Of a stretch of 64,000 nt of DNA, positions 9,686 through 54,929 are shown in pieces. Below the pieces are notes generated by a model that saw only the letters and a program-made list of their open reading frames with translations, searched no databases and was not told the DNA's origin. The stretch lies in NCBI GenBank assembly GCA_000004985.1, contig GG738895.1; one strand, given 5' to 3'. The stretch is from Naegleria gruberi. Its lineage: Eukaryota. Numbering within the stretch: position 1 is the stretch's first letter; every line of letters begins with the position of its first letter. The translations under genes were made by a program, and so were the position numbers.

Positions 9686-9720
9686 TACTTTGATAATAAA
9701 ATCAAAATAATACCATGTAC

Positions 9721-9744: not shown

Positions 9745-9965
9745 GAAATACTGTTAATTTTTTATTAATCACGAATTTCTACGCAACTAACCACAAATTG
9801 CTACACATCAAAACGCAATTTTAAAAATATTCTAAACCGCAAATTCCTATGGAAATCAAGCTAAACAATTCGCTGTTTGCAGAACAGAATTTGCGATTTA
9901 AAAAGAGGAAAATTTGCGGTTAGTTCCGTAACAATTCGTACTTTATAAAGAATTAACAGTAAGCC

Positions 9966-11347: not shown

Positions 11348-11405
11348 TTTTTTTTTCTTTATTTTAAATACTTTACAATTTATTAATAATAGTATTTTTT
11401 ATTTA

Positions 11406-11918
11406 TTATAAAATGGAATTTATTAAAAGAGAAGAGAAATGAGCATTATGATAAATGTCAAGAAGGCAACTGGTGTTACTGAGATGGCACTTGAAACAGT
11501 TGAAGGAAGAGCAGCTCTGGTCAATCTGCATTGGAACTTTACTGGTTGACATTGGAAGAAGAGATGAACCACATTCCACACTCATTCTTTGACAGAAAGA
11601 TTTACAAATATTCATCGTACTTGTGGTTGAATTATAATACTTTTGAGAAATAGATGGCACACACTTTCCACACTGAGTAGCAGCCAAATATTTACGACAG
11701 AGGGTAGAGGCAGATTGACTTAACATAGTGCTCATAGCAGAAATCTGACTCACTTCAAAATCAGTACAACAAGAGGAAGAACGGATGTTAATACCACAAG
11801 TAATATCACAATTAGGACAAGCAAATGAACTAGTACCACCCTTATTTGGGCATGTTTCAGCCATGATGAAAGTGACAAAGAGGAATGTGCAAGCTAACGC
11901 ACACAATAGTTTGAACAT
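11406..11918 (-). CDS. small secreted cysteine-rich protein
   Basis: ORF of 170 aa with an N-terminal hydrophobic signal peptide (MFKLLCALACTFLFVTFIMA) and more than 20 Cys. Confidence 0.45.
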   Translation of the reverse strand: MFKLLCALACTFLFVTFIMAETCPNKGGTSSFACPNCDITCGINIRSSSCCTDFEVSQISAMSTMLSQSASTLCRKYLAATQCGKCVPSISQKYYNSTTSTMNICKSFCQRMSVECGSSLLPMSTSKVPMQIDQSCSSFNCFKCHLSNTSCLLDIYHNAHFSSLLINSIL

Positions 11919-12052
11919 GCTGCTGTTGTTGTTGTTTTGTTTTTTTCAATTCTTGTTAGGGCTTAAAATATTGACTGAATTTAAGGCACAATTCAGTAAG
12001 AGTAACTTTTTTGGATTTCTTGTTTACAAGCATCCGACCAATCATTGAATTT

Positions 12053-12085
12053 AGCTCCCGTATTCAAAAAGTGAATACGGGGGCT
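12053..12085. other. GC-rich near-perfect hairpin (14-bp stem, AAAAG loop), with an ATGCAAAT octamer 26 nt downstream
   Basis: The sequence AGCTCCCGTATTCA-AAAAG-TGAATACGGGGGCT sits as a GC island in AT-rich intergenic DNA. It lies between the 3' end of the phytochelatin synthase gene and the 5' end of the secreted-protein gene. Confidence 0.5.
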
Positions 12086-12234
12086 TTGTTAATTTTCACC
12101 AAACATGTGCATGCAAATTTTTCACACACTTATTTATTTGGTGGTCCTTGCTTTACTGTACAAGATGCAAAAGGTTGTTGAGGGTGCTTACTTGTGCTTG
12201 CATGTGCATTCGGAATCACGCATTACATTAATCG

Positions 12235-13725
12235 TTATTGACAAGTGCTCATTTCAATAAGAGCTTGAATTTGTTTGGTGATTTGGCTAATGTTGGATTC
12301 CAAAGCAGTTCTGCAGCATTGTGAAATGCACATGTCTCCGAATTGATGCTTCAACTTGCTAATAATTGCTCGTAAATTGAGGTCCTCAAATAATTCATTG
12401 GGCATGCTGATCAACAGAATTGCAATCACTATGGATTTGTTTCTATCCTTTTCAAATTCCATAATTTCCCTAAATAATTGGTATTCCTTTAAATTAGTAT
12501 ATATAGTAGTAATCTTGTCGTTCCATAAAGTCTTAATCAATTCATACTCTTCAGATTTAATATCTTTGTCTTCGTTGATTAATAAAGGCTCTACCAAGTC
12601 AAAGATGACAGGACTCAGTACTTGGACAATACTTTCAAAGAGAATCGTTTGAGTGAGGGATTCATTATTGACCTGATTCATTTTGGTAAAGTACACCTCA
12701 GTAATATTCCTAGTGAGGGTCATCAACTTGACAAGAGTTTCAGACCATTTTTCCTTGACAACAACTCTATAACAAATGGCATTTTCTGGCTTTTTAACTG
12801 CTTCTTTTTTAATTACAACAAATCCTCTAGATAATCCTGTTGAAGAATCTATAGGATACAATGCCTTCCACAATAAATCAAGTTTCACCCAATGAGGTGG
12901 ATATTTAAATCTTGCAACATCTAGAACTAGGACCATATCATTTTCTGCATTATAGGCAGCCAAAGGAGAAAAATGTCCACTGCAATATACATTATTTCAA
13001 TGTAAATTTCAATGAAAAATAAAACCTACGTTCCAGTTTGTCCCAAAGTAGATCGATCATAGCTCACAACAATAAATGATGGATCATTATCAATTTTTGA
13101 CAAATCATTTGATTCTATTGAATCAATAATGAATTTCCTAAATTCCTCCAATGAAGAATCCTGAGGTCTATAAACATGACAATCAGCTCCATTACATTTA
13201 GCCAAACAAGCAAATTGTCTCAAAGTAATTCCCTCCTTCTTTACAACTTCCAATGGAACACAACAATCAAAAAACTCCTCAGTAAACCATCTCCAAGGAT
13301 ATTTCCAAACTCTCTTCGGATCAATTTTCAAAGCATTCATAACATTTACAAGTGTTCCCAATCCACAATCTTTAAAATCATCAATCATTACCAATTAATA
13401 TTATTAATAATACCATTAAATCATCAAACATACAAGAAGGCTCAGCTTGTGTATGAAATTGTTCAATTAGCGGAAAGAACGAATGAGTATTTCCTTCCAT
13501 CAAACTCTGGGAAAATAATTTCCTTCCTTCGAGTGAGGAAAAGGCGACCAAATGCGAAGGTAATTCTCTTTGATAAAAGCCTTGTTCTCTCTTTTCCGAT
13601 TGTTTTGAATCCGATAATACTAATGATGAAGATGTTGTTGTATTTAATGATAAAGTTGTTGTTGAAGGAGATAATGATGATGAACAACCCTTTTTCTTAC
13701 ATGACGATCCACATTGTGCGCTCAT
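12235..13725 (-). CDS. PCS: phytochelatin synthase (glutathione gamma-glutamylcysteinyltransferase) in 3 exons (13725..13434, 13369..13030, 12979..12235)
   Basis: After splicing the translation matches PCS along the catalytic domain: [29 protein letters not shown] (catalytic Cys), KYPWRWF, QTGTGHFSP (His), [15 protein letters not shown] (Asp). Introns at 13370..13433 and 12980..13029 run GTATGT/GTAGGT ... AG. Confidence 0.85.
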
Positions 13726-13856
13726 TTTTTTTGATTTGATTTTTCCTTTCAACAACTCCGTTTAATTCTTCCTTTTTCGTCACTCATTTTGACTCAAGTT
13801 ATTCTAAAGTTTGAAAATCTATATTACTTGAATGGAAGAAAATTAAATTTTAATTA

Positions 13857-16800
13857 TTATTTAAAAGGTTTTTGTGCTTGTCTAATAATCATGTATAAAT
13901 GTGAATCTTGGAATGAATCATTCCTATCATAGATTGATAACAATTTTTCAATTAATTGAATTGGATCAAAATTGCATTGAGATGGTGGTTTTAACAGTGA
14001 GTGATAATATTTTGAATTGTAAACAATTTTTCCATTTTCATCAATATCACCTCTTCCAAAGGCTTCCATTTCTATTATATTATGAGGTTTTGGGGCCACG
14101 GATAAGAAATTGCAAATAATTGATTGTTCCCATTCATTCTTGAAATATAATGAACATGAAAGAATGAATAAATCTGGAAGGAATCTATTAAGTTTTGCAA
14201 TTCTAGTCACTCTATCAAATTGTGAATTCACAGAAGGGATAGAAAGTGAAAGATTATCATATAATAGTTCATCACTGATATGAATTCTTCTACTGAATCT
14301 ATTCAATGTGAAATTAATTCCTTTTCCATTTTCATTAATAAATTTAAATATTTGATTGGCTTCGTATGGACATATTAAAATTATATAATTATCATTCAAG
14401 GAGTGAACAAACCAATCTATTGGTCTCTTGTAATAATCAATTTTAGAGTCAATTGTTGAAATGACAACATTTTTCATACTTTTGGTTGCATAAATGTTAC
14501 CATTCCAAATATTAGGGAGATTGTAAAGTGCAAAAGTATCAGATAATAATTCTTTAACATTTAACATGGTGGAGATATTTGGCTTGAATCCCATAATTAG
14601 CAATTTCAAATTAGTGTCCAATTCAGGAATACAGGGTTCTAATTGAGGAGGTCTAAATACTTGCTTTTCTTCTTCTAATTCATTTTCCAATTCTCTTTCT
14701 TGTTCTTCATTCAGTGTTTGTGAGAATATTTCCATAGTATTGGTTGACAGTTTTTCAATAATTTTTGAAATATTACTCTCAAATATTGTACAAAGATTCT
14801 TTGTGTGTAACGATCTAAAATGTAATTCTTTCAATTTAAATATTTGTGATAATAATTGCTTCTTTCGTTCTAATCCATAAAATGATTGTAATTCAAGTAT
14901 TTCATCTTCAATATATTTGTCATAGTATTGTTGAATAAGTATTGATTTTCCTAATTCTTGATTTAACCATAGTTTATGACTGTAAATCAATCCTTGGACA
15001 GCCCATTGTAATAAATGATCCATTTCCATTTGTTTTGTATTGAAATGTGTCCAGTTAATTATTTCTCTTGTATTGACAGTATTATTCTCTGATAATTTCT
15101 TAATATGTGAATCAACTTCTTTGGATGCCCAGAATGAAACGGTGTGTCCATTCACAGAACATAATTGTCTCATTCTCATGCATGCTTGAACGAACCTTTC
15201 ATTTGAAAGACCATTTCCTAAAGTAACAGCAGCTCTTGTACTTTCTGGAAATTTAATATCCGTCCCTCTTGTATGTACGTCATCTATGTATGTAACACAT
15301 TGTTCTAACTTGTTTTTATATGGAGACAAATCAAAATTAGTAACATGATTATATCTATCTATGACAGTGAGTTCATCATTATCATTAAAATATATTGCAG
15401 CATGGATTTCGTTTGGATTTGAAATTTCTAACCAATATTGTGCCAATTCTTCATTTGTCATTTCTAACATTAGTGCTCCAACGTCTAGTAATACTCTTGT
15501 TGTTTTTTGTGAATTAGCAATAGATTGAATAATGTCTTTGCATGATTGTTCATTTGAAATAACGTGATATTCTTCATTCCTCAAAATGAATGATTCAACA
15601 TTTTTAGAAGTATCTAGTAATTCTTCTAATTCATTTGATTGAATCGAAATTGGTAATAAAAATGATTTTGTGCCACTGAAACCGCTTGATTGATGATTCT
15701 TTTGATTACTTAAATTCCAAGATGAGGAAGTCAACTTTTTAGGAAATTGTTTGCATTCTTTTGGAAATACACACTTATTTAAATAAAAGTCAATAGCTGC
15801 CATTGAATATTTAAAAAATGGAAAAACTACTTCCATTTTTTGATGATAATCGGATAAGTTAATATTTGATAAAGATTTCAATTGTTCAGGTATTTGATTC
15901 TGACCTTCTTCGACCCATTTACAATATTCCTTTTCTGGGTCATCCAATGATAGCAATTCTTCGAATATATATTCAAGTTGAGAATTATCTAATCCACTAT
16001 AATAATAGCTTAATAATGTTAATAAAATTGCGATATCTGGATGACCATATTCAGATCTTTCAGATGGTACGTCTTTGGCTCTAAATGGAACGGCAATTGA
16101 TCTGTTAAAACCAACTCCATAATTAACTCTCCATCTTCTTTCTAATACAAGCTCCAAGGTTCCATACGCTAATAATCCTCTTAGTATTAATAATGATTCC
16201 CACTGGCTTTCTTTAGAATATTGTCTAATTAATTTCAATGTAGAATCATTAATTTCTTCACATGTCAAAAATTGTTTAAATAAAAGTCTATGTTCTGGCT
16301 TGATAGAAATGAAAATTCCTTTCAAGTTTCCATCAAGAATATCATTAACAATATTTTCTACAAGCAATTCAAAAGCTTTTGAATCTAAAATTCTCAAATG
16401 AGGAAATGAATGTTCAAAATTATTCATTTCCCTAAGTTCGACACAAGACGACCCAAATGAATCGAATAAACCTTTAGAATGTTTCTTAATTGATCTAAAT
16501 ACTTTTTGTAAAACATTCCAACGTTGATCTCTACCATCAATTTTTAATTGATTTCCAATTGTATAAATTAGTTGATACCTGGCATGAAGGATTTCATCTG
16601 ATTCATCTAATAAATCTCTACAATTATTTTCTAACCAATCTTGAACTTTAAATAATTGTTGAAAAAGGTCCGATTTAGATTTGATAGATTCAATACATTT
16701 CAATTCAAATGATAATCTATATTCGGGAACTGTGATGAGAACGCCTCTAGCTTTCATACAATTCGAATATAATGTTTGCAGTAACTCACAATCTAGTACT

Positions 16801-19800
16801 TGATGATCTCTATTAAATGGTGTTACTAGTACTGGTTTATCCAATATTCCACCCAATTTGAATCTTAGTGAGTTATAATTTGATGACAGTAGAGATTTTA
16901 AAACAGTTAATCTAACTAATTGATTTTTGTTCTTTCCAAGTTCTAATATTAACATTGGAATGATTACAGATGATTTACCCTCTCCCATATTAAATTGCTG
17001 CAATATATATGATTAAATGAAAGAAATTAATAAATTATACATACCATTACCATATTATTATGTGAATGAATCATATGATTTGCAACTCTAACTTGAACTG
17101 GTCTAATCATTATATTCATTTCTATTTCTAATATTAACCAATATGGATGGTCAGATGGCTTCCAATTTTCATGACCCTTGTTTTCTAATTCTCTTGAATG
17201 AAGTGTTGTCATTTTGGAATACTCTAAAGCTTTTAATCTTTCAGCTCTTTGCAATAATGTTATTAAAACTCCATAACAACCAACTAAATTTTTCAATTTT
17301 TGATTAGTTTGGTCATCTAATAGTAATTTTAAAATATTGGTCTTTGTTACTCGTGGCCATAAGCCAGCAATATAGAGTGCTTGATTGGTGGTATTATCAT
17401 TTGGATGTAACACTTTTTGTATTAAATCTTCCATTTCCATATAAAGAATTTCAACATTATCATCAACTTGGCCAGTTTCAAAGACTCTAGTTGAGAATTC
17501 AATAATATTACTACTCAAATTATTTAGTTGATCAAAATAATCAACCAAAAAGGTCCATTTAGGTTTGCATGGACAATCTTGAATTTGTTTGAAAATTAAA
17601 GGGAATCTACTTGGTATGGTGTATGATGGCAAGTTATTCACCATAACTTGCAACTTTTCAAGGTAAGTATGGAGTTGATAATTTGCTTTCCTTTCCTCAA
17701 ATATAGTTCTCATCTTTTCCTTGTACGTATCCAGAATTAGACTGGATGATTCGAATGAAATATAAATACTATTAGAAGTTTTAAATGTTGAATAGGTATT
17801 AAGTAAATTATTGCTCATTTTTAACTTTTCCTCTGCGATTCTGTTATCATATTTATCTTGATTTTCTCTTGATAGTGTAACATATAAATCTCTGAATGAC
17901 CTTTTATGGTTGTCCAATATTTCTTGTATAGTATATGCATATACATCACATTCCTTGATATTCCTTTCCTTCTCAGAATGTGGATATGAGTACATGATTT
18001 TATCCTTATTAAGATAAATTAACCCTAATAAATTAACTAGCGTCTCATCAAATTCAAAATACATCAGCATTGTTAAAAAAATTATTAATTTTCTTTTAGA
18101 AAATTGTTGAATTTCATCGGTCAGTTTTGAAAAACACGACTTGATATCAACTGTCATCCAACCTTCAATAGTTTTCAAATCTGTTTTGCAATTCTGTGTT
18201 GAATTGATAATAGATTTTATACTATTCAAAGGTCCAAACATATTGTTCTTCAAAGAGTAACATAATTGTCTGCACTTATTGATTTCTTTGGCGTCGGAGT
18301 GAGTTTTCATCCAAAAACTAGAATCAGAGGATTCACTGTCTATTTCACAATCTTTAGAGTAATAGTGAATATCTTTAAAATACGCCTTCCAATAGAGTAA
18401 ATTTAGTATTATTTTTACTCTTTTCAATACTAATAGCTGAAAATAATTTTGAATTTTCTTTCTTAATTCGTTCGCATAATATCATATAGGAGTCTAATTG
18501 TACAATAGACGATAAATTATTATTCCATGTCGTTACTTGCATATCAGTTAAATGTTCTGGATAATAAGATCTCTGTGGAGATAATGTCGATATTAATTCA
18601 AGTAATTCAATCTCAAACTCTTTCATTGGAATATGTAATTGATAACAACGTTTAGATTTCAAGATAGATATTGCAGCTTCATATCCACACAATTTGGTGA
18701 ATGGATCAGGTAAGAAGTAAGAAGTACATCCATGCAAATATGCTAAATACAACCAACTTGCTAAACTTTGCTCTGCTTCCAATCTTTCCAGTTGTGCATT
18801 GACAGTATAGGTGAAGAAGGGAGGAGATGAAACAGAATTTAAATCAATATCTACTTTTACATGACCACTAATGTCTCTAGCTACTTGAATATCTCCATTA
18901 GGAATTACTAATACTGTATTTTTCGAATAGTTATCAACTAATTTGAGCCCTTTTTGCAATCCAATTAATGTTCCTATTTCAAAGTTAGTGGATACTGTCA
19001 TTCCAAATTGTTTACAAATAAATTGTGAGTAATTATTGGACAGAATAAATATTAATCCTTTTCTAGGTAATTCAACAAAAAGAGTATTATCTTGATAGTA
19101 AGAATGTACATGTTCATCTTTTTCAATTCTGCTCATAATTTTCATTATTTCTGTAAATATTTTACTTCTATTGTCTATAAAATATTTCTTATCCTTCATA
19201 TCTAATAACAATCTACTATTCAAATTCAAAGTATAATGAACCTTTGAGAAATTGGTATCTAAGAAAAACATTGGTCTAAATAAAATACAATTAGATTCCT
19301 TATCAATCCAATGACCATATTTTTCTTTGAGTTGAAAAGGTAAATCTTTTGCAAAATATTCATGCGGAAAATAAACTTTTTCCTTATTGTCCTTGGTTAT
19401 TTCACTGATAATTAAAATTTCTTGCTCGATTTGTGATATTAATTTAAATTTGAAAAAGCTTCCACCAAATGTGTTCTTAGTCACAAAGGACTTGAATTCT
19501 GATCCTGGTTGTACATCAAGGACTATTTAGTGTCAATACATCAACATTCTTCATATACTTACCCATATTTTGAAAAATTCTTTGATATTCATTGCTTTTT
19601 GTAATTATTTCTGGTAGCCGTCCAATAGGAGCATGATTTATCAATAATGTTCCGTTAATAATGTTAACTTGGATGAGAACTTCGTTAAATTTAACATAAT
19701 ACCAATTTTCAGATTCTGCATATTGATGCCATTTCAAATTCAATTCTTCTAAATTTCTAACTTCACTCCATTTTTCTTTCAGGAAAATGTTTAATTCAGA

Positions 19801-22800
19801 GCTATCTTTTAACGAATCATGAATTGAATCTTGAATTAATTGTGATGTCTTGATTGTTTCTCTGAACAATAACTTTCTAAATTGAGGGAGTGTATTTAAA
19901 CCAATATTATTCAAAAGTAAATTTTCGTAAATTATTGATCTCGCAAGCAACCATTTAGAAAAATCTCCTAGTAATCTCTGGGAAGAAAAAGGATGAAAAG
20001 TTAAACAGCAGCAACAAGCTGTTTCAGTTTGCAAGTTTCGAATGTTTGTGCACTCGATCGGATTGTCAATAATTTTGAGCAATACTTGTTCACTTTTAGA
20101 TAACCACACAAGGCAGAGTTCTCTAATATCAAGTAATAATTTCTCAACTCTGTTATGCAATCTAGTATTTTCACACATTTCCAAAAATTTTTTGGCACAA
20201 AATACAATGATTACTAATTGATTAATAGATTTCCAATTATTTTCAATTTTTTTCAATAATTTCTGAAGTAGTGAAACAAGCTCATTTGAAAAATTCAAAT
20301 CTCGAACAGGATCATTTGTTTCTCTCCACCAATCTCCTTTGGAAGGGCATGATTGTAATAAACTTTGGAGAATTAAAAAACAAACATCTTGTTCATCAAA
20401 AGAGAGTACGTTATTTGAAAGAACTTTGGCTAAATTATGCATTTGAAGACGATAGCCAGCCCTAAATGATCCAAATTCTATAAATTCTGTAAGAGGAAGT
20501 TTAGGATGACAATTAATTTGAGAGGATAAAACATCATTCTGGTTGTGGCAATAATTTCTAAGGAAAGGAATCAAGCTATTATACCTTCCATTCTTGTCTA
20601 GTAAAAATGAGCATTCTTCAACAATACTGGATTTTGAGAAATGTACGTACTTTCCATCGATAGAAATTCGAAGATTCAGAGCGTTTCTTTTTATAAATTC
20701 ATCTTCAGAATTCCTTGGGTGGTGTTGCTCTTTAGAGTAATGGGATCTCAAATAAGATTTTTGAGAGCTTGTTAAACTAACTCTATTGTGTTTAGTGTTA
20801 GAGTTGTGGTTTCTTAAATACTCTTTCCAAATTTCAGTGCAACCATTAGCTTTTTGCCTTGGATTGTAGTAGTTTACAATTTCAAAGAACTCAATCAATA
20901 CATTGCTCAAGCATCTAAACTCATCAGGAATTAGTAATTCAAAAATAACAGCATTTTTCAAATAATCCTCTTCTGGTAGAACTTTTTCGTATGGCGTAAC
21001 ACTCATTTCACTTGCCCGGTTCTGGTAGTAACATTTCGAACAATGAGATCTGCATTTGTAACGGCGATGGTATTCACTATAATATTCATCATGGGAAATT
21101 TTGCTAGCTTGTTCCAGGTATTCCTGATACGTTTGTTTTGCTTTTCTAACTTCATCTTTTTTAGCTTGGATTTTCTCTTGAATTTCTTTTTCAATATTTT
21201 CTCTCAACCGGATCATAGTTGGATTTCTGTTTGCATATCTGACAGAAAATGAATTTCGGCTTATTTCTGAAAGAAAATCAGGTTGATAAATAGCTGACTG
21301 TTCGAAATTATTGAAATAGGTTTCAAGTTCGAATAGATATTTCCATTCATCTTTTCTATTGAGGTTAATATAATTGAAAATTGAGGTATCAATACCAGTC
21401 TTGTACTCTTTAACCATAGATGATTGTTTTTGTGCAAATTCTATTAACTTTCTAATGATATTTAGACAAGTGAGAATCATTCTACTGAATCCCATTGGAT
21501 CAGTGGCATAAACTGTTTTTGCCACTACTACGTATTGTGTAAATAGGTTATTTAAATTATTAGGTGTACAGTGATAGTCTGTTATCATGTTCTTTCTAAC
21601 CCATTCTTCAATAATAAATAATTCAGATAAAGATGCTTCACCACCGTCTGTTTGACTAATCGTAAATTGAGAAATACTAAAAGATCTATTGAATGATTTT
21701 GGAACAATTTCACTTTCGTCAACTGTTTGTTGTTCTATTTCTCTGTAAAGGTTAATGACTTTTTCAGACTCAACCAATTGTTGATAAATATTATCAGACT
21801 TGTTGGCTGCTGAACCTAAAGTCAAATTAATTTTGGAGGTATCACTGCAAATAATATTCCAATTATTATCCAGATATTTTCTTTGTTCAGCAATAAACTT
21901 GTAGGCATAAGTCAAAATATGCTTGGTTTTAGGATCGTGCAAATCATCCAACTTTTTAAGTCTAATTGCTAGTTTTGAAATAACTTGTAATTTTACCTCA
22001 TCACTCATTTCATGGAAGTGCTTGTTAGCAATATGAATGAAATATTTCATCAATACTGCCTTATAATAAACTTTTCCATCATTCTCGCCATACTTCCAAA
22101 CAAGTAACAATTGCAAAATAATTTTGATGGACATCCACAATCCAGATCTCCTGTAAGGATGCATGGCATTGCTCCATTCAATTGAATTTCTAATCTTTTT
22201 GTTGATCATCTTCTCGTGAGCTAATTCACCACCAAGAAGAGCAACCAACCACTCTGTGATAATTACTGAAGAAACTACATCACGCCCTTCATCTTCTTTA
22301 CTGCCAGCTTTTGTTGATTTTGGTCTTATTTGACCTATTTGATTCGAAAACAAATCTTGCAACAAAGTGGCAAGCTCATCAGAGCAAAGCATTGAGAGAT
22401 TCTCATCCTTGACACTGATAGTAACCTCAGGATAAAGTGTTACAAGATCGCCACACCTAGACATAATCTCCTTGTTGTTTGGATGCACTGTAAATACTGA
22501 AACTTTAGCAGATTGTCCCTTCTCCTTACGAATGATCAAACATGCATTACAGTTTTGAATATAGAGAGGAAGTATAACATTAGCATTGGTATCAAGTAAA
22601 CTTTGTACTTGGCCACCGTCTAAACCAAGTTTGGAGTCAATCTCATCCACATCTTCTTGAACAGACATCCAATTTGTAAATGCCTTCTGAACATCTGCAA
22701 ATTCAACGGCTAATTCATCCATTTTCAAAAATTGGACAAACTCTAAAAGATGAAGTAAATCATAGCCAACAGTCTCTTGTGATGGCAATTTTTTCAATAA

Positions 22801-38683: not shown

Positions 38684-41600
38684 TCAACAACAGCAAGAAC
38701 AACAAGAAGATTTTGAAGATGATCCAGATAATCTCTTTCTTCTCGCTCTTAACACTAAAGCAATGACCACGACAATAATGATGACTACTGTTACAATGAT
38801 AATGAATGAACCACCCAAAGTAGTTGCCAGAATGATAATTTGTTCATTGTTGAGTGAAATTAAATCATTTCTCAATTGTGAAGGTTGCGGCATTCCCTTA
38901 TATTCCGAATTTGCCTTCTTATAATTCTTGTCAATTACTGAAAAGGAAGTCAAGTGAGAAGTTTTGCAAGTAATTAATTGAACATAATATAAAATACCAT
39001 CCACTACTTCCTCATTGTAATATTCAAAAGTGGTAGAAAGTCCTTCACTATTCCACAATTGCATGGAATTATCATAGAATGAACATGTCAAATTGAAAAG
39101 TGTCAAGTTGACTTTGGGAATGTAAACTTTTCCAAATGAAATTTGAATTGGCTCGTTTAGTTGTGAAATTTTCAAAGCTTGATTACTAGAAACGAAGCTC
39201 AATGTTATTACACTAGAAAGGACTTGACCTTTGGTTTCGTCCTTAGACACGGAGGCAATAATGGAAATGTCAGATTTTGGCACTTGATTAGTTTCATTTA
39301 GGTAGGATGATAATGAGCTTGGTAACTTGATAGAAAGCCCATCAAACTTCGTAAAGTTTACCACACGAGAATTCAAATCTTCAACTGTTCCAATAGTTTG
39401 AACAATAATTTCCCTATTCGAATCTTGAATTGGAGCTAGGCATGTGAAATTCTGTTGTTGAGAGAATGATCCTACACAGAACGGAGTAGAACAATCCTTT
39501 CCCAACCAACCTGCTCTACAAGTACATTGATTAGGTGCAGAACAAGTTCCATTTCCATAATTACAAACTTGCGGAGAATTAGCTGGTTGACCAAAACAAA
39601 GATCAATTTCACAATTTAAACCAGTTGAACCAACAGCACAGTTACAAGCATCATAATTTTGGCAATCACCTCTTCCAGAACAAACACTTGCATTTTCAAA
39701 GTGAATTCCAAAACAATTAAAATCTTGACAATACTTTCCATAATATCCAAAAGTACAATTGCATGTTTCTGAAGCAATGCATTGACCTCTTGAATTACAG
39801 ACATTCACATCGGTATTTTCCAAATCGTTACAATAGGTAATATTACAATTGAAACCTGAAAAACCTGGCTTACAAGAGCATGAATTGAGATTCGTACAGT
39901 TTCCATTACGATTATTACAAACTTGTGGAGAATTACTGGCATAACCATAGCAATAAGTAGCACCACAAGCACTTCCATAGAAACCACTATTACACAAACA
40001 CAAATCCTGTTGTAAACAAATTCCATTTCCAGAACAAACATTCAACTGATCTGCCTGCACACCGAAACATGACATGTTTCTTACTTCACAATAAGCTCCA
40101 CCAAATCCATTTTCACATAGGCACGACCGAGAAGCTTGGCATTGACCTCTTCCATTACAAACCTTTGGATCATCTGACATGACATCATTACAAATACTCA
40201 ACTCACAATTTGGACCTCCAAATCCTGGATTACAGGTGCAAAAATTGTAAAACCAACAAGAGCCATGTCCTGAACAAATCTTCTGATCATTAGCCTGCAC
40301 TCCATAGCATGTTTGGTTCAATTCTCTAGTGAGTGTGAAAATATTTCCTCTTGAGGCGAAGGAAATTTCCAAAAATGTCGATTCTTTCACATAAATTGCT
40401 TTTGGATTATCAAGTTGAGAGAAGGGTGGATTGTTCAGTCCCTCCTCTACGTATAGTATTGGAGTAATGAGACCATTAGTCATTGAGATTCTAATTGTTG
40501 ATTCTTCTCCAATGATAAATTCTTTTGTTTTGGTCACGAAGAAACTTGTTGGATATTTTAATTGGGCATTAATGGATTGAATGACAGTATCTCCTGTATC
40601 AGTTCCTCCACCAATGATTCTAATGGCATAGGTCTTGTTCATAACTTGATGGATGGCCATAGTTGTACTTCCTAAAAAGTAAATCATGCCATCAGAACTC
40701 ACAAATAAGGAAGTGATATCTTCCGTTCCAATGAATGCAGTATCAATGGTCAAATTTTGATAAATAATTCTAATTCTATTCTGTGAAGACACATAGATAT
40801 CATTGTTATACAGAGCTATTCCAGATGGATTAGGAACCGATGAAGATCGACCATTGACACCATCTTTGACATTACTGATCATTCCATCACCTGCCAACGT
40901 TTGAACTATTGAATTATTGTACTTGTTAACAAGATGATTTGCTGGTAGTATGTAAAACAAAGCCCCACTTTCATCTGCAACCATTCCACCAACTTGTTCA
41001 TCCGAAACAAGTGAAACTATTCCATTTTCTAGACGATTCATTCTTCTGAAAGGTGAATACTCGGCATATTCACTGAAAAACAATCTATTACTAGAGAATG
41101 TGAATGCATCAATTCTATTAAATGAAGAAAGCAATGGTGGTTGATTACTTGTTGCTACCAAAGTTCCAACAATAGTTGAGATTATTCCATTCTTACTGAT
41201 CTTTCGAATTCTTTGATTGTCGACATCGGCAAAGATGAGTTCATCATTCTCATTGACAACCATATCACCCACTGATGAAGTTTTACTATTAATGGCCAAA
41301 CCTCCATCACCTCCAAAACCATTTTCCATTCCTGCAATTTGCTCAAATTGTCCGCTTGTGTTAAATCTGAAAATTTTGTAAACTTCACATGCAAAATAAA
41401 CATTTCCATTCGAATCAACATCAAAATAAGGATTCAATGAATCTTTCCTGAATAGAGTCAATGCAGTTCCATTCTTGAAAACTTTGTAAAATGTACCCAT
41501 TTCCTGATCGAGAGCATAAAGAGTTTCGTTTACATATTTGGTTGAGTGACTATATTGTGGAAGATTCATAAAGAAAGTAGTATTGGAGGTTCGAATATCT

Positions 41601-42231
41601 AGTTTACGATATGAGCGGGTTGCTGATGATGAGGAGTAGAGTAATTCTCTTTCGTTTAGAATGTGAAGAGAATAGGCTGAACCTTGTAGAAAGTAAACAT
41701 TGGAGACAAGTCCAGTTTTGAAGGAAATTCTTCTGATCATTGCATTTCCACCATCGAGAATATATAAATATTCATTGTTTGGATCAACTGCTAATGAAGG
41801 TATGTATGATCTATTCGAAACATGTTAGTTTCATTTCAAACTAAACCATCCTAAACTTGTAAAACTTACGAAAAGAAAGCATATGTAGCCATAACAGAAT
41901 CTCCACTATACGGTATCAAACTGTTTACTCTAGAATTCCCACCAATCGTATACACATTTCCATTCTTATCAACCTTCTTGATTAGGGGACCTTCTGTGAA
42001 GAATAATTGACCATCTTTCCAAGCCAATGAACCAAGCTGATCAGAAACTCCATAACTAGTGGCTGGAATTCCATTCGTATAGTTGGAACCAACGATGGTT
42101 TTTAGACGATAGGTTGGAGTTTCGAATAGTGCACTCACATGAGATACACACATGCAACTGATTAGCAATAGTGATAAAACCACAGCCACGCACCACAAGA
42201 AACCAAAAGGAACTTTAGGATTTCTTGACAT
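38684..42231 (-). CDS. single-pass receptor in 2 exons (42231..41870 and 41810..38684): signal peptide, NHL-type beta-propeller repeats, tenascin-type EGF repeats, GPS-like motif (CKTSHLTSFSV), TM, and a Ser/Cys-rich tail
   Basis: Intron 41811..41869 runs GTAAGT...GAATAG and keeps the frame. There are more than 10 C-x-C-x-x-G-F/Y-x-G-x-x-C EGF units, and the TM helix is IIILATTLGGSFIIIVTVVIIIVVVIALVL. Confidence 0.7.
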
Positions 42232-48588: not shown

Positions 48589-48605
48589 TAAGGAATATTA
48601 ATTTT

Positions 48606-48614
48606 AAACCAAAA
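48606..48614 (+). promoter_or_regulatory. AAACCAAAA upstream element, 70 nt before tRNA-like gene 1
   Basis: The same 9-mer occurs 69-71 nt upstream of all four tRNA-like genes. An A/T-rich TATA-like stretch sits around -30. Confidence 0.6.
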
Positions 48615-48675
48615 ATGATTTGAATTATTAAAAGAAAATTCACAAATATAGTTAGTGGGAAGATTGCAGATTTGT

Positions 48676-48751
48676 GGGTGAATAGTTTAATTGGGAGAAC
48701 GTAGCCGTTGCACTAGAAGCTAAGGCGGTAGATCGAACCTACCTTCACCTA
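48676..48751 (+). ncRNA. tRNA-shaped ncRNA gene 1 (76 nt) with an enlarged variable loop. It is followed by TTTTT at 48760..48764
   Basis: Acceptor GGGTGAA/TTCACCT, U8, D-arm GTTT-AATTGGGA-GAAC, stem TAGCC/AGCTA with 11-nt loop GTTGCACTAGA, variable AGGC, T-arm GGTAG-ATCGAAC-CTACC, discriminator A. Confidence 0.6.
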
Positions 48752-48871
48752 CGCTTAGCTTTTTCCCCACCAATTCTTAATAATTATTTAATAATACTAT
48801 ATAAATAATATTTAAAGAAATCATATCATACATTAATATTTAGGGTGAATATTTAAAGATATGATGTTAAA

Positions 48872-50472
48872 TTATGATTTTTCCTTTTCACTATTCTCTT
48901 CGTTCATCATAACCAATATTTGTTGAATAATTTCACATAAGGCAGTATCTTGGTCAGAATGCATCATTTCTTCGAGAGTATCCCTTATTCCACACTTATT
49001 CATTTCCTCTCTGAAATTATTGTTTTTCAATAGACTCAAAAGAGTACTCAAACAAATTTGGTTAACAGCTACTAATGACAATCCTTGATGAAGTATTGGT
49101 ACAACTCCAATCTTAATTAAATAATCAATAATATCGTCCGTTGCCGTAGTACATAAATTGTAGATAACATAGTAAGGTTCCTCTTTCACTATTAATTCGG
49201 TATTTTGTTTGACAGCTTCAATCACTAATTCAATAATTCCAGACTCAACAGCCGCTCTAATATGATCAATGGTTCCAGCAGTAATATTTGAAACGATAAA
49301 AATTGCTTCTTTCTTTAGAAAAGCATTCTCATTTAAAATGAAGGATGATAATGCAGATAATAATCGAATATTCAACATGTGGTCTGTATGAGAATTATTT
49401 CTTGTAACTATATATCCAACTAATTGAAGACAACCACTGAAAATATGAATATATTAACGTGAAATATTAAAGAATAATTTGAGAATAGATACTTACACTT
49501 GTATACTTGTACATTCAGAGGAAAGCAGCAAAATAACTTTTTCGATAATATTACCATAAGCTTGAATAAGTATTTCGATATGATCATCACTTATTGCTAT
49601 TTGAATAAGTGCCCAACAAACATTATTGACAACATCCTCATCAGAAGTATTAATTAATTTGGAGAGAACTGGCAGAACCATTTTGACATATTTGATAGAT
49701 ACATATGGTATTCCTCTCATCAAATTTACTAAGCACCATGAACCTAAATTAATCATAAGCCAATCATATCAAATAATATAGACCTACCCGTTCTTAGTAA
49801 ATTTACGAGAAATGTTTCATTTAAAAGATCTAATAAAGGCGTTAATACATCCCACTCCAGGACGAAATCTCTGAACCTGATAGAATCTCCACAAATATTT
49901 CCCAAAGCCCAAATGGCTTGTTCTCTCACGTTACAATCTGTCGAGTTTTTCAGTAGATTGATAAATGTAGGAACACATCCCAGCTCTACAACATGTGCTG
50001 TATCATATGGTGATCCACTAGCAATATTTGTCAATGACAATACTGATTCAAAAATCAATTTGTCAACCTGCACTTTTGTAATTGGATTTTCAGATTGATT
50101 ATTCCCATTTTCAATAGTGTAATATTTTGTAATATTCTCATGATCAAGAAAGTTTACCAACATTTTTGTACTACCGGCTTCAATGACCTTTCGAATATTG
50201 GCCGGTCGGTTATCCTCTCTCACTAATAGGCTTCTAATTGTCGTTACAGTTTCCAATACAGTTTTAAAGGAATTACATTGCATATCCAAATAATAATTTA
50301 AAATTCCGAGTTGATCAAGAGACAAGACTATTTCTCTTCTCTTGAGATGACGATTGCAAAATTTGGTTCGGGATTTATCAGAAATGCTTTTTCTAATTTT
50401 TTGTTTTTCTTTCCAAATGATTGCATTGGCGTGGAAAGATGATGAAATTGTTGCTGATTGTTGTTCACGCAT
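48872..50472 (-). CDS. importin-alpha-like (armadillo-repeat karyopherin) in 3 exons (50472..49788, 49743..49497, 49436..48872)
   Basis: ARM repeats carrying the importin-alpha W/N ladder (AIWALGNICGDS; GSWCLVNLMRG; VVNNVCWALIQIAISDD). Introns at 49744..49787 and 49437..49496 (GTAGGT/GTAAGT...AG). Confidence 0.7.
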
Positions 50473-50638
50473 TTTTTTTTAAAAATTTGCTTGGAAATGA
50501 AAAATTCCATAAATATTTATGCAATCATTGTAAACTAAAAGATACAACAGCAATGATTGAAAATTTATTGAATGAAACCAAATATTTGCATAAATAGCAT
50601 ACAAGTTTTATCAATTTTTCGATAATGTTATTAATTTT

Positions 50639-50647
50639 AAACCAAAA
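50639..50647 (+). promoter_or_regulatory. AAACCAAAA upstream element, 71 nt before tRNA-like gene 2
   Basis: See 48606. Confidence 0.6.
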
Positions 50648-50709
50648 ACTGTTGGAAATTTCCAAATAAAATTTCTCGAAAAAGGTTAATTATGAAATTG
50701 ATTTTTTGT

Positions 50710-50784
50710 GGGTGAATAGTTTAGTGGGAGAACATAGAAGGTACGGTAGATTCTAAGGCGGTAGATCGAAACTACCTTCACCTA
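50710..50784 (+). ncRNA. tRNA-shaped ncRNA gene 2 (75 nt). It is followed by TTTT/TTTTT at 50793..50805
   Basis: Acceptor GGGTGAA/TTCACCT, D-arm GTTT-AGTGGGA-GAAC, stem TAGAA/TTCTA (perfect) with 11-nt loop GGTACGGTAGA, variable AGGC, T-arm GGTAG-ATCGAAA-CTACC. Confidence 0.6.
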
Positions 50785-50871
50785 CACAAAACTTTTAAAT
50801 TTTTGAGTTTACAATAAATGTTTATTTTCTTTAAATAGGCATTTTCAATGCAATTTAAAAAGAATAATTGT

Positions 50872-50880
50872 AAACCAAAA
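50872..50880 (+). promoter_or_regulatory. AAACCAAAA upstream element, 69 nt before tRNA-like gene 3
   Basis: See 48606. Confidence 0.6.
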
Positions 50881-50940
50881 GATTGATTGACATATTTTGA
50901 GAACTTTTACAATAATGATTGGTTCGAATTTCTGATTAGT

Positions 50941-51016
50941 AGGTGAATAGTTTAATTGGGAGAATGCAGTGGTCTATGTTGAATCTGCGGTGGTAGATCG
51001 AAACTACCTTCGCCTA
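50941..51016 (+). ncRNA. tRNA-shaped ncRNA gene 3 (76 nt). It is followed by TTTTT at 51020..51024
   Basis: Acceptor AGGTGAA/TTCGCCT (one G-U pair), D-arm GTTT-AATTGGGA-GAAT, stem (G)CAGT/(A)CTGC with 11-nt loop GTCTATGTTGA, variable CGGT, T-arm GGTAG-ATCGAAA-CTACC. This is the weakest stem of the four copies. Confidence 0.5.
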
Positions 51017-51152
51017 CTCTTTTTCCCTCCAAAATATGAGATAAATCATTTGATGCCTAGAAGACAAAGTACTGTTGAGATATATGATAAAGATCAAGTT
51101 TAAAAAATATGTGGAAATGTCATCATCTCTTTGAATATAGAAAATTAATTGT

Positions 51153-51161
51153 AAACCAAAA
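51153..51161 (+). promoter_or_regulatory. AAACCAAAA upstream element, 71 nt before tRNA-like gene 4
   Basis: See 48606. Confidence 0.6.
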
Positions 51162-51223
51162 ATTGAATTACAATATTTTTAGAAATTTCACAATTAGGGT
51201 TGAGATCATAATTGGTCGTTGTT

Positions 51224-51300
51224 AGGTGAATGGTTTAATTGGGAGAACGCAGAGGTCCAGAGTAGAATCTGAGGTGGCAGATCGAAACTGCCTTCACCTA
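51224..51300 (+). ncRNA. tRNA-shaped ncRNA gene 4 (77 nt). It is followed by TTTTT at 51303..51307
   Basis: Acceptor AGGTGAA/TTCACCT, D-arm GTTT-AATTGGGA-GAAC, stem CAGAG/ATCTG with 12-nt loop GTCCAGAGTAGA, variable AGGT, T-arm GGCAG-ATCGAAA-CTGCC. The T-stem change is compensatory relative to copies 1-3. Confidence 0.6.
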
Positions 51301-51368
51301 ACTTTTTACAACAATATTAAATTTTTTTAAATATTGTAAAGTTTTATTATAAATATACACAGTTTCCA

Positions 51369-51911: not shown

Positions 51912-54900
51912 ATGGTAAAGCTCTGGTATTTTCTGACAGTTTTATTGTCAATATTGATACTAGTGAGCCATTCATGTCAAGCAAAAGTCATTGATCCAAA
52001 TTCTCTCAACGCGGCAGTTGCTACTCATCTATACGAAAGAAAATTTCTGGGAGCTTTATGTGATGGAACTACTGGACTTGCATGTTATACTGGATATGTA
52101 AAACAAACCTTTCTCTACAATGAAACAGAATTGTATTTTACTAATAGTTTTACCAAGTCCATTAACAAGTATAATCTTCAGACGAAAGTGGTGGAAACTA
52201 TTGTTGGAACAGGTTCTTATCACAGAGCTCCTTTAACGCTCAGCGATTTGTATGCAACTCCAAAGGAAACTAATATTGGAGAACCTAATAGCGTTGCTGT
52301 TTATCAAGGATTCGTCTACTTTACAACAATTGAAAATACTGACGTGATTTTCAGAGTCAAAAGTGAAGGTAGTGGACTTGTTACAATCTTTGCTGGTGTT
52401 TCTGGGTCAACTGGTTATAATCCTTTGGTAATTTCAAGAACCTCTTCACCACTTTCTGGTCCAACTTATCTGAATTTCTATTCGAATGGTAATTTAATCT
52501 TGTATGAGAGTGAAATTTGTACCATTCGATTAATTTCTGGTAATAATATTACAACACTCGCAGGAAATGGCCTATGCAACTATGCCTATGTAAACAACAC
52601 ACTTTCGAATGGAATTTCGGCCATGACAATTTCCACCGATCAAATACTCTACATTTCCACACCTAGTGGAGTTATAATGAAATGGAATGGTGCAGATTTC
52701 GTAACTGTCTATGACACCCAAGCTTTTGTCAGCAGTTTGGCAGCAAACTCTGCAAATATTTACTTTACAACAGATACGAATGAGTTAAGCTCAGTTTCTA
52801 TTGATGGTTCGAATAGAGTTGTGTTGATGGGACCTAATCTAGGTTTCATGAGTGATGGCCAAGTTCTTTCTGGTGGAAAGACTGCCTCTCCAATGGCATT
52901 GTCCATTAGTAAGGCAAGTTCAACATTATTCTTTTCCGAAAATGGAAATGCCAGAATTAGAACTTATTTAAATGCCAATGTTAAAACCCTTATTGGATTT
53001 AGCTCATCAGGTTCAGCAGCTACTACTCTTGTCAATCCAACAAAGATGGCTCTCGTTGGATCCAATCTCTATGTTTTAGAGACCATGTCCGGCAGCATCC
53101 TCAATTATGATGTTAGTGGAAACGCTCCTGCTGGAGGTGGTGGTTACAAATTAGTGACATCCATTGCAGGATGTTCCAGTATTGTTGCCATTAATAATAC
53201 AGTCTATGTTGGCTCAACTCTATATAATTCAGTGTATAAGATTGAGGGAACTAAGGCGATAAGAATTGCTGGAAATGGAACTAATTTATCTAGTGGAGAT
53301 GGAAAGTATGCGAATGCTTCAACCATTTCAAATCCATTGGCGTTGGCTTCTGATTCGAGTGGAAGTTTATACATTCTTTCTACAAATATTATTAGAAAGG
53401 TCGATAAGAATGGAATCATTTCCACTCTATACAATTATTTTAGCACTGGATTGAATGATATTTACATTAGTGAAAAGGATGAAATATTAATCAGTGATTT
53501 GAAAGGTTATGTTTATCAATTGACCTGTACAACAGATTTATTTCAATTTTGTGGCTATATCCAAATTGCTGGTGTTTCTAATGGATTAGCCAGAAGTGTT
53601 GGTTTTAATAATGCATTAGAAGTGCCAATTAAGCCACTCACCATCTCTGCAGTGTCAAATTTCAAAACTGGTTACTGGAATACTTTGTTAATTTCTGAAT
53701 CGACAAGTATTTCAGTAGTTTCAGAAGGACTTATTTCTGGATTAGTCTACAATCCAAAGAATAGCCCAACAGTTAGTTTTCAAACCCTTCAAGTGACTGG
53801 CTTTGCAGTCAACCAAACCAATGGAGTCATTTACGTTTCAGGTCCTTACGGAATTTCAACATTAACTCCTTACAAATTACCAAGGGAAGCTTGTCCATGT
53901 TCTGGAAATGGAATTTGCTATTCGAATAATCCAAATCTCTGTCTTTGTGATCAAGGATGGAGTGGAACCAAATGTGCACTTCCATTGTGTAATGGAATTC
54001 TTTCTACAAATCCACAAGTTTGTACGAATGGTCAAGGAGTTTGTAGTGCTCCAGATAGTTGTGTTTGTAAATCTGGATTTGTTGGAACTCAATGTCAAAT
54101 TCCATTCTGTGTAGGATCAACTCTGAATGAAAACTTTACTTGTTCTGAAAGTCAGTCAAATTCGGGAAGCAATTCATCGACAAGTACAAAACAGGAAATT
54201 ATTGTTGAGGTTGTTGAGACAGTGACTGATCTAAATTCCAAGAATTTGACATTTACTACTGTTGACACTATTGAAGTTGTCTTTCCTTCAAACTTTTCAA
54301 GTTATCTTTCACAAACCATTTCACAAATTGCCAATAATCCAATTACACTAGTTTCGTCTGTGGTTGACTCTACAAATTCAAGCACTAATCCAAGTGAAAA
54401 TCCTGTCAAACCTCAACTCGTAGTCAGTCCAGTAATCACTCTCTCACTATTTACCAATTCTTCCATGATAATTTCTGTGAAAAACTTGGAGAAACCAATC
54501 GAATTACTCTTCACAAATATTCAACTCTCAAAAATTGAATCTTCCTCCAATCTTACATGCATGTTTTTCGATACCTCAATCAATGATTGGAGCGACGAAG
54601 GAATTTCCTCAAAAATCATTTCCATTCAACAAGCCGATTCTCAATTCGTAATTTCCATGAAATGTGAAACGAAACATTTAACTTCCTTTGCAGTAATTGA
54701 TAAGAATTATAAGAAACAAGTTTCGTCTCCCAATGAAGGAGGAAACAAAATACCAGCAACTGTTTCTGAATGGAAAAGTCAATTGGAAGGATTGAGTGAA
54801 AGTGAAATTATTGCAATTTCAGTTTCGATTGGTGGATCATGTTTGATTATTGCAACTTTGGCGATTTTAATTAGTGTAGTTTGTATCATTGTCATGAAGA

Positions 54901-54929
54901 GAAAGAAAAATCGTTGTTTAACCATTTAA
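51912..54929 (+). CDS. paralog of the 38684..42231 receptor: signal peptide, NHL-type repeats, tenascin-type EGF repeats, GPS-like motif (MKCETKHLTSFAV) and TM, in a single exon
   Basis: ORF of 1005 aa. The domain order and many local motifs are shared with the minus-strand paralog (for example IVGTGSYH/ILAGDGMISN, CxCxxGFxGxxC units, HLTSFAVIDKNYKK versus HLTSFSVIDKNYKK). The C-terminal TM helix is IIAISVSIGGSCLIIATLAILISVVCIIV. Confidence 0.7.
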   Translation: MVKLWYFLTVLLSILILVSHSCQAKVIDPNSLNAAVATHLYERKFLGALCDGTTGLACYTGYVKQTFLYNETELYFTNSFTKSINKYNLQTKVVETIVGTGSYHRAPLTLSDLYATPKETNIGEPNSVAVYQGFVYFTTIENTDVIFRVKSEGSGLVTIFAGVSGSTGYNPLVISRTSSPLSGPTYLNFYSNGNLILYESEICTIRLISGNNITTLAGNGLCNYAYVNNTLSNGISAMTISTDQILYISTPSGVIMKWNGADFVTVYDTQAFVSSLAANSANIYFTTDTNELSSVSIDGSNRVVLMGPNLGFMSDGQVLSGGKTASPMALSISKASSTLFFSENGNARIRTYLNANVKTLIGFSSSGSAATTLVNPTKMALVGSNLYVLETMSGSILNYDVSGNAPAGGGGYKLVTSIAGCSSIVAINNTVYVGSTLYNSVYKIEGTKAIRIAGNGTNLSSGDGKYANASTISNPLALASDSSGSLYILSTNIIRKVDKNGIISTLYNYFSTGLNDIYISEKDEILISDLKGYVYQLTCTTDLFQFCGYIQIAGVSNGLARSVGFNNALEVPIKPLTISAVSNFKTGYWNTLLISESTSISVVSEGLISGLVYNPKNSPTVSFQTLQVTGFAVNQTNGVIYVSGPYGISTLTPYKLPREACPCSGNGICYSNNPNLCLCDQGWSGTKCALPLCNGILSTNPQVCTNGQGVCSAPDSCVCKSGFVGTQCQIPFCVGSTLNENFTCSESQSNSGSNSSTSTKQEIIVEVVETVTDLNSKNLTFTTVDTIEVVFPSNFSSYLSQTISQIANNPITLVSSVVDSTNSSTNPSENPVKPQLVVSPVITLSLFTNSSMIISVKNLEKPIELLFTNIQLSKIESSSNLTCMFFDTSINDWSDEGISSKIISIQQADSQFVISMKCETKHLTSFAVIDKNYKKQVSSPNEGGNKIPATVSEWKSQLEGLSESEIIAISVSIGGSCLIIATLAILISVVCIIVMKRKKNRCLTI

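Follow-up and report, generated by a model that had tools for sequence, protein, structure and literature searches.

Non-decoding look-alikes of transfer RNA (tRNA) are known but rare. They include the tRNA-like RNA that belongs to the trypanosomatid signal recognition particle (SRP), mascRNA, vault RNA, and the bacterial cell-wall tRNAs, and each of them revealed a reuse of the tRNA processing and binding machinery for other jobs. The trypanosomatid example, sRNA-76/85, is a non-decoding tRNA-like RNA of the SRP, and sRNA-85 acts through tRNA-like contacts (PMC2800229). Here we describe four tRNA-shaped units with an enlarged loop at the anticodon position. They were found in a stretch of 64,000 nucleotides of Naegleria gruberi (assembly GCA_000004985.1, contig GG738895.1), which is called the window below.

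All four units are on the plus strand, and the window contains no fifth member. They belong to the tRNA-like non-coding RNAs, i.e., to a known kind. Judging from the sequence, they appear to be a real, selected, lineage-restricted family of genes of the RNA polymerase III (Pol III) type, which would encode L-shaped tRNA look-alikes unable to decode in any standard way.

Four tRNA-shaped units and their common fold

The units were counted to the discriminator A and numbered in 5' to 3' order: c1 (48676..48751, 76 nt), c2 (50710..50784, 75 nt), c3 (50941..51016, 76 nt), and c4 (51224..51300, 77 nt). Unit c1 lies on the 3' side of one protein-coding gene; c2–c4 form a tandem on its 5' side with spacings of 231 and 283 bp. 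A degenerate 21-nt pattern for the 3' half of the units has four matches in the window, namely the four units, against a chance expectation of 0. The four units were also used to build a covariance model (R1), which was run on the whole window with filters off. It scored the units at 94–98 bits (98.1, 94.5, 94, and 97.1 bits for c1–c4, respectively); the runner-up was a genuine tRNA-Glu with 19.6 bits, and everything below that was noise. Four cloverleaf units of 75–77 nt had been proposed in a first-pass annotation of this DNA, and all of them were recovered by the pattern search, the R1 model, and the alignment. The units of that annotation are thus real, but its reference to dictyostelids was misplaced: the host is a heterolobosean (Discoba). 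The genetic code is standard, as seen from long uninterrupted open reading frames in the window.

The alignment of the four units is a textbook class I tRNA skeleton. The acceptor stem has 7 bp (RGGTGAA paired with TTCRCCT) and is followed by the discriminator A, with no CCA encoded. U8 and R9 are present, the D stem has 4 bp, and the D loop carries G18, G19, and A21. The variable loop has 4 nt, the T stem 5 bp, and the T loop 7 nt. Nearly all of this had been described before, and both the letters and the alignment bear it out. The T loop reported earlier, ATCGAAA, is true of c2–c4 (AUCGAAA in RNA), but c1 has AUCGAAC.

Pairing was counted over this cloverleaf together with the tertiary pair 15:48. 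Canonical pairing is found in 94.3% of pair cells, compared to 36–48% after sliding the 3' partners by 1–3 columns. All one-sided changes are G.U wobbles, at 1:72 (A-U or G.U), 4:69 (U-A or U.G), and 10:25 (G-C or G.U). Four pairs are changed on both sides: 27:43 in the anticodon-position stem (U-A twice, C-G twice), 30:40, 51:63 in the T stem (U-A three times, C-G once), and the Levitt pair 15:48 (A-U twice, G-C once, A.C once). The compensatory T-stem change from GGTAG/CTACC to GGCAG/CTGCC, the latter in c4, is real in both the alignment and the RNAalifold prediction. Without structural input, RNAalifold predicts the identical cloverleaf for the four units.

For an estimate of age, the alignment of units with their flanks was split into compartments, and identities were taken for the closest pairs, c1/c2 and c3/c4. 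The flanks outside the promoter blocks (see below) are 47–48% identical, which is saturation for AT-rich DNA. The body without the anticodon arm is 93% identical in c1/c2 and 89% in c3/c4 (Fisher p = 5e-9 and 7e-8 versus the flanks); among the four copies the body identity is 85–93%. The distal upstream block is 100% identical in c1/c2, 94% in c3/c4, and 89–100% over all pairs. Saturated flanks together with a body of 89–93% identity point to old paralogues under purifying selection, neither recent copies nor decaying heads of short interspersed elements (SINEs). The first-pass annotation had also argued for structural selection instead of SINE decay, and the compensatory or wobble-only changes in all helices and at 15:48 speak for it as well. 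We conclude that the four units are, by all appearance, old duplicates in which purifying selection maintains the RNA body, the promoter, and the terminator.

The enlarged loop and the decoding question

At the position of the anticodon loop, the units carry GTTGCACTAGA in c1 (11 nt, 48707..48717), GGTACGGTAGA in c2 (11 nt, 50740..50750), GTCTATGTTGA in c3 (11 nt, 50972..50982), and GTCCAGAGTAGA in c4 (12 nt, 51255..51266), all on the plus strand. The loops are therefore enlarged relative to the usual 7 nt, as had been claimed, but none reaches the 13 nt given as the upper limit of the earlier range. The stem below has 3–5 bp; its innermost pair forms in c2 only, and RNAalifold keeps 4 bp. In c3 there are only 3 bp (CAG/CTG), followed by U.U and G.A. 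The proposed covariation of this stem is seen at 27:43 and 30:40, but the stem is not a clean 5-bp helix. Three of the four copies have U as the second base of the loop; c2 has G there and thus no U33. The statement that U33 is lacking in most copies was wrong.

The loop has a conserved frame, G-K-Y on the 5' side and U-W-G-A on the 3' side, around a core of 4–6 nt that is different in each of the four copies. The identity of the core is 40% in c1/c2 and 33% in c3/c4 (Fisher p = 1.0 and 0.69 versus the flanks). A "hypervariable" loop on a scaffold "presenting a variable 8–12 nt element" is hence an overstatement: what varies is the core of 4–6 nt, at the rate of the neutral flanks (47–48%; p = 0.7–1.0). 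The core seems merely not to be held alike between paralogues, and nothing indicates evolution faster than neutral.

These data bear on the idea, put forward in the first-pass annotation, that the tRNA scaffold displays a short copy-specific "address", a guide- or specifier-like loop that pairs with a distinct target in each case. A distinct core per copy, set in a conserved frame on a conserved scaffold, is what such an RNA would look like, and the core is not alike between paralogues while everything around it is. Yet the divergence of the core equals that of the neutral flanks, with no sign of diversifying or copy-specific selection, a core of 4–6 nt alone is too short for specific pairing, and there are four copies only. 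With just four old paralogues, a presented element is indistinguishable from a simply unconstrained loop. We regard this explanation as distinctly improbable.

The frame G-K-Y...U-W-G-A is exactly 7 nt long, and removal of the 4–5 nt core would leave the anticodons UUA, UUA, CUU, and CUA, three of which (UUA, UUA, CUA) are readers of stop codons. We know of no intron type of 4–5 nt at 34/35 and for this reason treat the exact length of the frame as a coincidence. Readings of the loop as a K-turn, a sarcin-ricin motif, or an extended helix were rejected on inspection of the alignment: pairings past G32.A and K33.G are not common to all copies.

The first-pass annotation held that the units are not ordinary tRNA genes and have no standard-intron reading. 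Both statements stand. With default settings ARAGORN called 0 of the 4 units; with relaxed thresholds it gave inconsistent tRNA calls with "introns" of 3–5 nt at odd positions. In an Rfam scan, which had been suggested there, nothing but the tRNA model RF00005 (gathering score 29) matched the units, even at E<=10. The scan does bring c2 and c3 above the tRNA gathering score (46.7 and 35.4 bits), but the model fits them by treating the loop as an insertion (11 nt in c2); c1 and c4 were not reported. We also enumerated, in all four copies, every contiguous excision that leaves a 7-nt loop. No position of the excision gives U33 and a purine at 37 in all four copies, and c2 never obtains U33. At the canonical position (after nucleotide 37), two of the four copies have U33 with purine 37, and the anticodons would be UGC, UAC, CUA, and CCA. 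Nearly every register of excision creates stop-codon anticodons.

It is improbable, in our view, that the units are genuine decoding tRNAs with unusually small introns of 4–5 nt, whether spliced at 37/38 to the four anticodons just listed or to another set. Several features would suit such tRNAs. All the elements of the L-shape are present in the four units, and relaxed ARAGORN does return tRNA calls with introns of 3–5 nt. The putative positions 34 and 36 are common to both members of each close pair. Eukaryotic pre-tRNAs have a 32:(-3) anticodon-intron pair and a 3-nt 3' bulge, for which three invariant loop bases of the units might stand in: the G that opens the loop, the U that comes three bases ahead of the conserved G-A, and the last A. 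However, apart from the failure to find a position that fits all four copies, c3 would be an amber suppressor on a 3-bp stem in a host with the standard code, an insert of 4–5 nt cannot form a bulge-helix-bulge, and the enlarged anticodon loops that we found in the literature have only 8–9 nt. Moreover, four isotypes would share one body of 85–93% identity, with an "Ala" copy that lacks G3:U70. Four isotypes on a nearly identical body are contrary to the usual rules of synthetase identity. A spliceosomal micro-intron (GU...AG occurs in three of the four loops) was rejected too: the size is wrong, and its removal leaves a loop of about 1 nt.

Thus, every reading of the units as tRNAs with an intron fails in at least one copy. 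Since a loop of 11–12 nt stands on a weak stem of 3–5 bp, no canonical anticodon could be presented on the ribosome. The body would have lost, or never had, a decoding anticodon loop, and the arm at this position may be a mere hairpin that is closed by the conserved frame and leaves a core of 4–6 nt free.

Upstream elements, T-runs, and the surrounding window

In the window there are four exact copies of the 10-mer TAAACCAAAA, where 0.7 would be expected, and each of them lies 70–72 nt upstream of a unit (71, 72, 70, and 72 nt before +1 in c1–c4, respectively). Its one-mismatch variants are at chance level (21 versus 18.9 expected) and have no association with any feature. An upstream motif, AAACCAAAA, had been noticed before, and the restriction of the exact 10-mer to these four places in 64 kb makes the case stronger than was claimed. 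The 10-mer lies inside a 17-nt distal block, TTAATTKTAAACCAAAA, at about -78..-62. A second conserved block, AAnTTyaCAAnnAnnGTT, is found at -40..-23, the position of a TATA-like element. The sequence between the two blocks is diverged, and beyond -80 there is no conservation between copies.

In c1 the distal block, a putative element similar to the proximal sequence element (PSE), is TTAATTTTAAACCAAAA (48598..48614), and the proximal block is AAATTCACAAATATAGTT (48636..48653). The same distal TTAATTTTAAACCAAAA precedes c2 (50631..50647), with AATTTCTCGAAAAAGGTT as the proximal block (50670..50687). The corresponding blocks are ATAATTGTAAACCAAAA (50864..50880) and GAACTTTTACAATAATGA (50901..50918) for c3, and TTAATTGTAAACCAAAA (51145..51161) and AATTTCACAATTAGGGTT (51184..51201) for c4; all proximal blocks were delimited in the flank alignment. 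Each unit starts with a purine that has a T just before it. A run of 4–5 T, resembling a Pol III terminator, follows 2–8 nt past the discriminator in all four units: TTTTT at 48760..48764 in c1 (8 nt past the discriminator), TTTT at 50793..50796 in c2 with a second run, TTTTT, a few nucleotides later, TTTTT at 51020..51024 in c3, and TTTTT at 51303..51307 in c4. The upstream blocks and T-runs are, like the units, on the plus strand. Inside the units, the A box TAGTTTAATTGGG agrees fairly well with TRGCNNAGTGG, and the B box AGATCGAAACT has four deviations from GGTTCGANTCC.

A mixed external and internal promoter is the layout of tRNA-Sec, vault, 7SL, or U6-type Pol III genes. The units have this layout, and we infer from it a promoter function of the conserved blocks. 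Transcription by Pol III would proceed from a gene-external promoter composed of the distal TTAATTKTAAACCAAAA block and the TATA-like block, assisted by the fair A box and the deviant B box. The transcript would start at or just before the purine +1 and stop at the T-run.

A solo degenerate distal block, AATCATTGTAAACTAAAAGAT, is located at 50523..50543 on the plus strand and is identical to the block of c3 at 19 of 21 positions. No tRNA-shaped unit lies about 70 nt downstream of it; it is 108 nt upstream of the own block of c2 and could be left over from a copy now lost, or be an additional upstream element. The genuine tRNA-Glu(TTC) of the window (8677-8750) has a near-consensus B box and no exact TAAACCAAAA. 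At 8599-8611, about -79..-67 of this gene, there is TTTTAACAAAATG, which loosely resembles TTTTAAACCAAAAATG of c1 at a similar distance. With this single case, the likeness might reflect a general upstream element of Naegleria Pol III genes or chance in AT-rich DNA.

Taken together with the fold, the upstream elements bear on whether the units have any RNA function. An alternative would be pseudogenes or a low-copy repeat, both derived from tRNA, or Pol III/TFIIIC sites kept for use at the DNA level alone (boundary or promoter elements), similarly to the A/B-box elements that serve small nuclear RNA (snRNA) genes in trypanosomatids. The anticodon arm does look degenerate, with mismatches in three of the four stems and a core at the neutral rate. 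Only two of the four units reach the Rfam gathering score for tRNA, no relatives were found in the sequence collections or in the sampled loci of other heteroloboseans, and there are units on either side of a protein-coding gene. Discoba do use tRNA-like A/B boxes as extragenic promoters (PMC4950102). But the conservation extends beyond the A and B boxes: it covers the acceptor and T stems on both strands, with changes that compensate or leave a wobble pair, and 15:48 covaries. The body is 89–93% identical between flanks that are saturated, and the putative external promoter and terminator are kept at fixed spacing. There is no tail, target-site duplication, or dispersed copy in the 64 kb. In the trypanosomatid arrangement, moreover, a small-RNA gene must lie divergently about 105 bp upstream of box A; the corresponding region of the units is unconserved and has no Rfam match. 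Elements without RNA function are thus rather unlikely.

The gene between c1 and c2–c4 (48872-50472, minus strand, three exons, 498 aa) is an ARM-repeat, importin-alpha-like gene. It has <=37% identity to any importin alpha in the databases and no detected Naegleria orthologue, and it appears to be a fast-evolving lineage-specific paralogue. A teneurin-like gene with EGF/NHL repeats (P0001, XP_002672731.1, 1005 aa, 51912-54929, plus strand) begins 600 bp downstream of c4, and a second gene of this kind is located at 38684-41740 on the minus strand. The best relatives of XP_002672731.1 are bacterial NHL/beta-propeller proteins (<=31% identity). The database search gave no eukaryotic orthologue, and the propeller part may be of bacterial origin. 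Neither of the genes flanking the units has an orthologue found in any other Naegleria that could provide synteny.

Relatives of the units were searched for in several collections. Viral contigs gave 0 matches to the pattern of the 3' half and 0 to that of the 5' half. The 3' half pattern matched seven loci in JGI metagenome contigs, all by chance in GC-rich bacterial coding sequence, and gave four chance matches (12–14 bits) in prokaryotic genomes. Other heteroloboseans were sampled around the topoisomerase III gene (about 123 kb; about 170 kb with all fetched loci): N. fowleri-like loci (L008, L013), N. lovaniensis (L012), Willaertia magna (L009), Acrasis kona (L010), and a JGI contig (L011). 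These loci contain no family member and no synteny past the anchor gene; the sole tRNA there is an ordinary tRNA-Asn, and the single match to the upstream motif is a chance one inside a coding exon. As these samples of other heteroloboseans amount to only about 0.17 Mb, little follows from the absence. The literature search found nothing on tRNA-like RNAs, tRNA introns, or Pol III promoters of Naegleria. The small RNAs 1–6 of N. fowleri extracellular vesicles and the accompanying tRNA table have no strings that match the units.

The tRNA-Asn(GTT) mentioned above (L011, 7105-7181) is just upstream of the topoisomerase III gene and lacks TAAACCAAAA. The topoisomerase III of this contig is 50% identical to that of Naegleria, and its source is probably a heterolobosean-like protist. 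N. fowleri (L013) and N. lovaniensis (L012) share the gene order UCR_14kD, Top3, RMP, TPR, TauE, DSPc around this gene. In N. gruberi (window positions 1-20000) the order is not found beyond Top3, and no tRNA-Glu is near the gene in L012 and L013.

Proposed role and comparison with known systems

We tentatively propose that the units are non-decoding tRNA mimics, which would owe their synthesis and processing to the tRNA machinery and their action to the conserved body, while the enlarged loop would be largely free. Our rough probability for this reading is 45%. The transcript would be trimmed and given CCA in the manner of a tRNA; this is to be expected, since the acceptor/T-arm minihelix, the discriminator A, and the contacts of the D and T loops are intact. 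With its tRNA-like body the RNA is likely to be a ligand, a decoy, or a structural partner of a tRNA-binding protein or of a ribonucleoprotein. The weak R1:U72 pair and the T loop with A54 and A60 are features that disfavor the use of elongation factor in eukaryotic initiator tRNA.

Several observations weigh against this proposal. The covariation rests on four sequences of one locus, so the statistics are indicative, not conclusive. The z-scores of single folds are weak (-0.4 to -1.4, compared to -1.8 for the real tRNA-Glu); for tRNA-like RNAs rich in AU, such scores carry no information. Splicing also retains a degree of plausibility, since the first loop base, G, and the U that precedes the conserved G-A by three bases might pair as anticodon and intron do in a eukaryotic pre-tRNA (see above). 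Finally, no member was found outside the N. gruberi window, neither in the viral, metagenome, and prokaryotic collections nor in about 170 kb of heterolobosean DNA, and in its phylogenetic spread the family might be very young.

If the proposal is true, the units are an independent case of selected, promoter-equipped look-alikes in a free-living heterolobosean, i.e., in a poorly studied branch of eukaryotes. With them, Naegleria would also have its first candidate motif for an external Pol III promoter, of use in expression tools such as guide-RNA cassettes for N. gruberi and N. fowleri. For annotators they would be a warning: calls of tRNA finders with odd "introns", suppressor or undetermined isotypes should, at such places, not be read as decoding tRNAs. 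The importance would be much higher if the loops were copy-specific functional elements. One can imagine an as yet undescribed class of Pol III RNAs that uses the intact tRNA L-shape as a chassis, passes through synthesis, trimming, CCA addition, and trafficking as a tRNA does, is kept from elongation by the initiator-like 1:72 pair and T loop, and carries its own short specificity element in the loop of each paralogue; such RNAs would be tRNA-bodied adaptors or guides, not decoders. We give this prediction only a slim chance.

The comparison with canonical tRNA (RF00005) reveals an almost complete agreement outside the anticodon arm: the 7-bp acceptor stem, U8, the 4-bp D stem, G18, G19, and A21, the 4-nt variable loop, the 5-bp T stem, the 7-nt T loop, the discriminator A without an encoded CCA, the partners 15:48, 18:55, and 19:56, U55, C56, the A and B boxes, and the T-run terminator. 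The differences are a loop of 11–12 nt on 3–5 bp instead of 7 nt on 5 bp, with no register that has U33 and R37 in all units, the conserved putative external promoter, and the failure of two of the four units to reach the Rfam gathering score and of all four to be called by default ARAGORN.

Eukaryotic tRNA-Sec genes need upstream PSE/TATA-type elements, and their transcripts start at or near the mature 5' end. The upstream layout of the units, with distal and proximal blocks at fixed distance, is analogous as far as the letters tell. The RNA itself is different: the geometry is 7/5, not 9/4 or 8/5, the D stem does not have 6 bp, a long variable arm is absent, and UCA occurs in none of the loops. 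From tRNA-derived SINEs and pseudogenes, which share with the units a tRNA-related sequence and a defective anticodon region, the units differ in having no tRNA-unrelated body, tail, target-site duplications, or dispersed copies in the 64 kb. They have, moreover, a conserved putative external promoter at a fixed distance and a body that seems to be under purifying selection with compensatory changes. A role as a retroelement primer was rejected as well: apart from the antisense strand of the genes themselves, the window has no complement to the 3' end, whether CCA is added or not.

The likeness to initiator tRNA-Met consists in A1:U72 in c3 and c4 (G1.U72 in c1 and c2), A54 in all units, A60 in c2–c4 (C60 in c1), and the discriminator A. 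Unlike the initiator, the units lack both CAU and the three consecutive G-C pairs of the anticodon stem, and position 20 is G instead of A. The first-pass annotation took the A54-type T loop for a trait of initiators, but A54/A60 is also found in trypanosomatid tRNA-Ala (box B GGATCGATACC) and so is not diagnostic (PMC4950102).

The extragenic "tRNA-like" elements of trypanosomatids are likewise intergenic Pol III elements of Discoba with A and B boxes, but they form no cloverleaf and are located 104–106 bp upstream of a divergent snRNA or 7SL gene (PMC4950102). The Naegleria units, in contrast, are intact covarying cloverleaves. No snRNA or 7SL gene was matched by Rfam near them on either strand, in line with the unconserved region beyond -80.

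A further explanation is that the units are the Naegleria counterpart of a known tRNA-like component of a ribonucleoprotein, either vault RNA or the trypanosomatid SRP RNA; we find this very improbable. Vault RNA has a similar design, with Pol III transcription, A and B boxes mixed with upstream promoter elements, a terminal stem, a variable center, and paralogues clustered in tandem. It is not a full cloverleaf, however, and the units have no match to the Rfam Vault family at E<=10 or to any SRP-related family. MVP homologues are reported for Naegleria. But Heterolobosea reportedly have no TEP1, which is the protein that binds vault RNA, and only short forms of MVP (PMC12547018).

As for the SRP, Naegleria and trypanosomatids are both Discoba, and sRNA-85, a tRNA-like RNA of non-canonical type, cooperates with the 7SL RNA on the ribosome (PMC2800229). 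Four diverged paralogues in the Naegleria window, instead of a single gene, are unexpected for a stoichiometric SRP subunit. The likeness of the units and sRNA-76/85 is one of description: both come from Discoba and are tRNA-shaped and non-canonical, and both are non-decoding if our proposal for the units is correct. By this analogy, sRNA-76/85 appears to be the closest functional precedent for the Naegleria units within the same supergroup.

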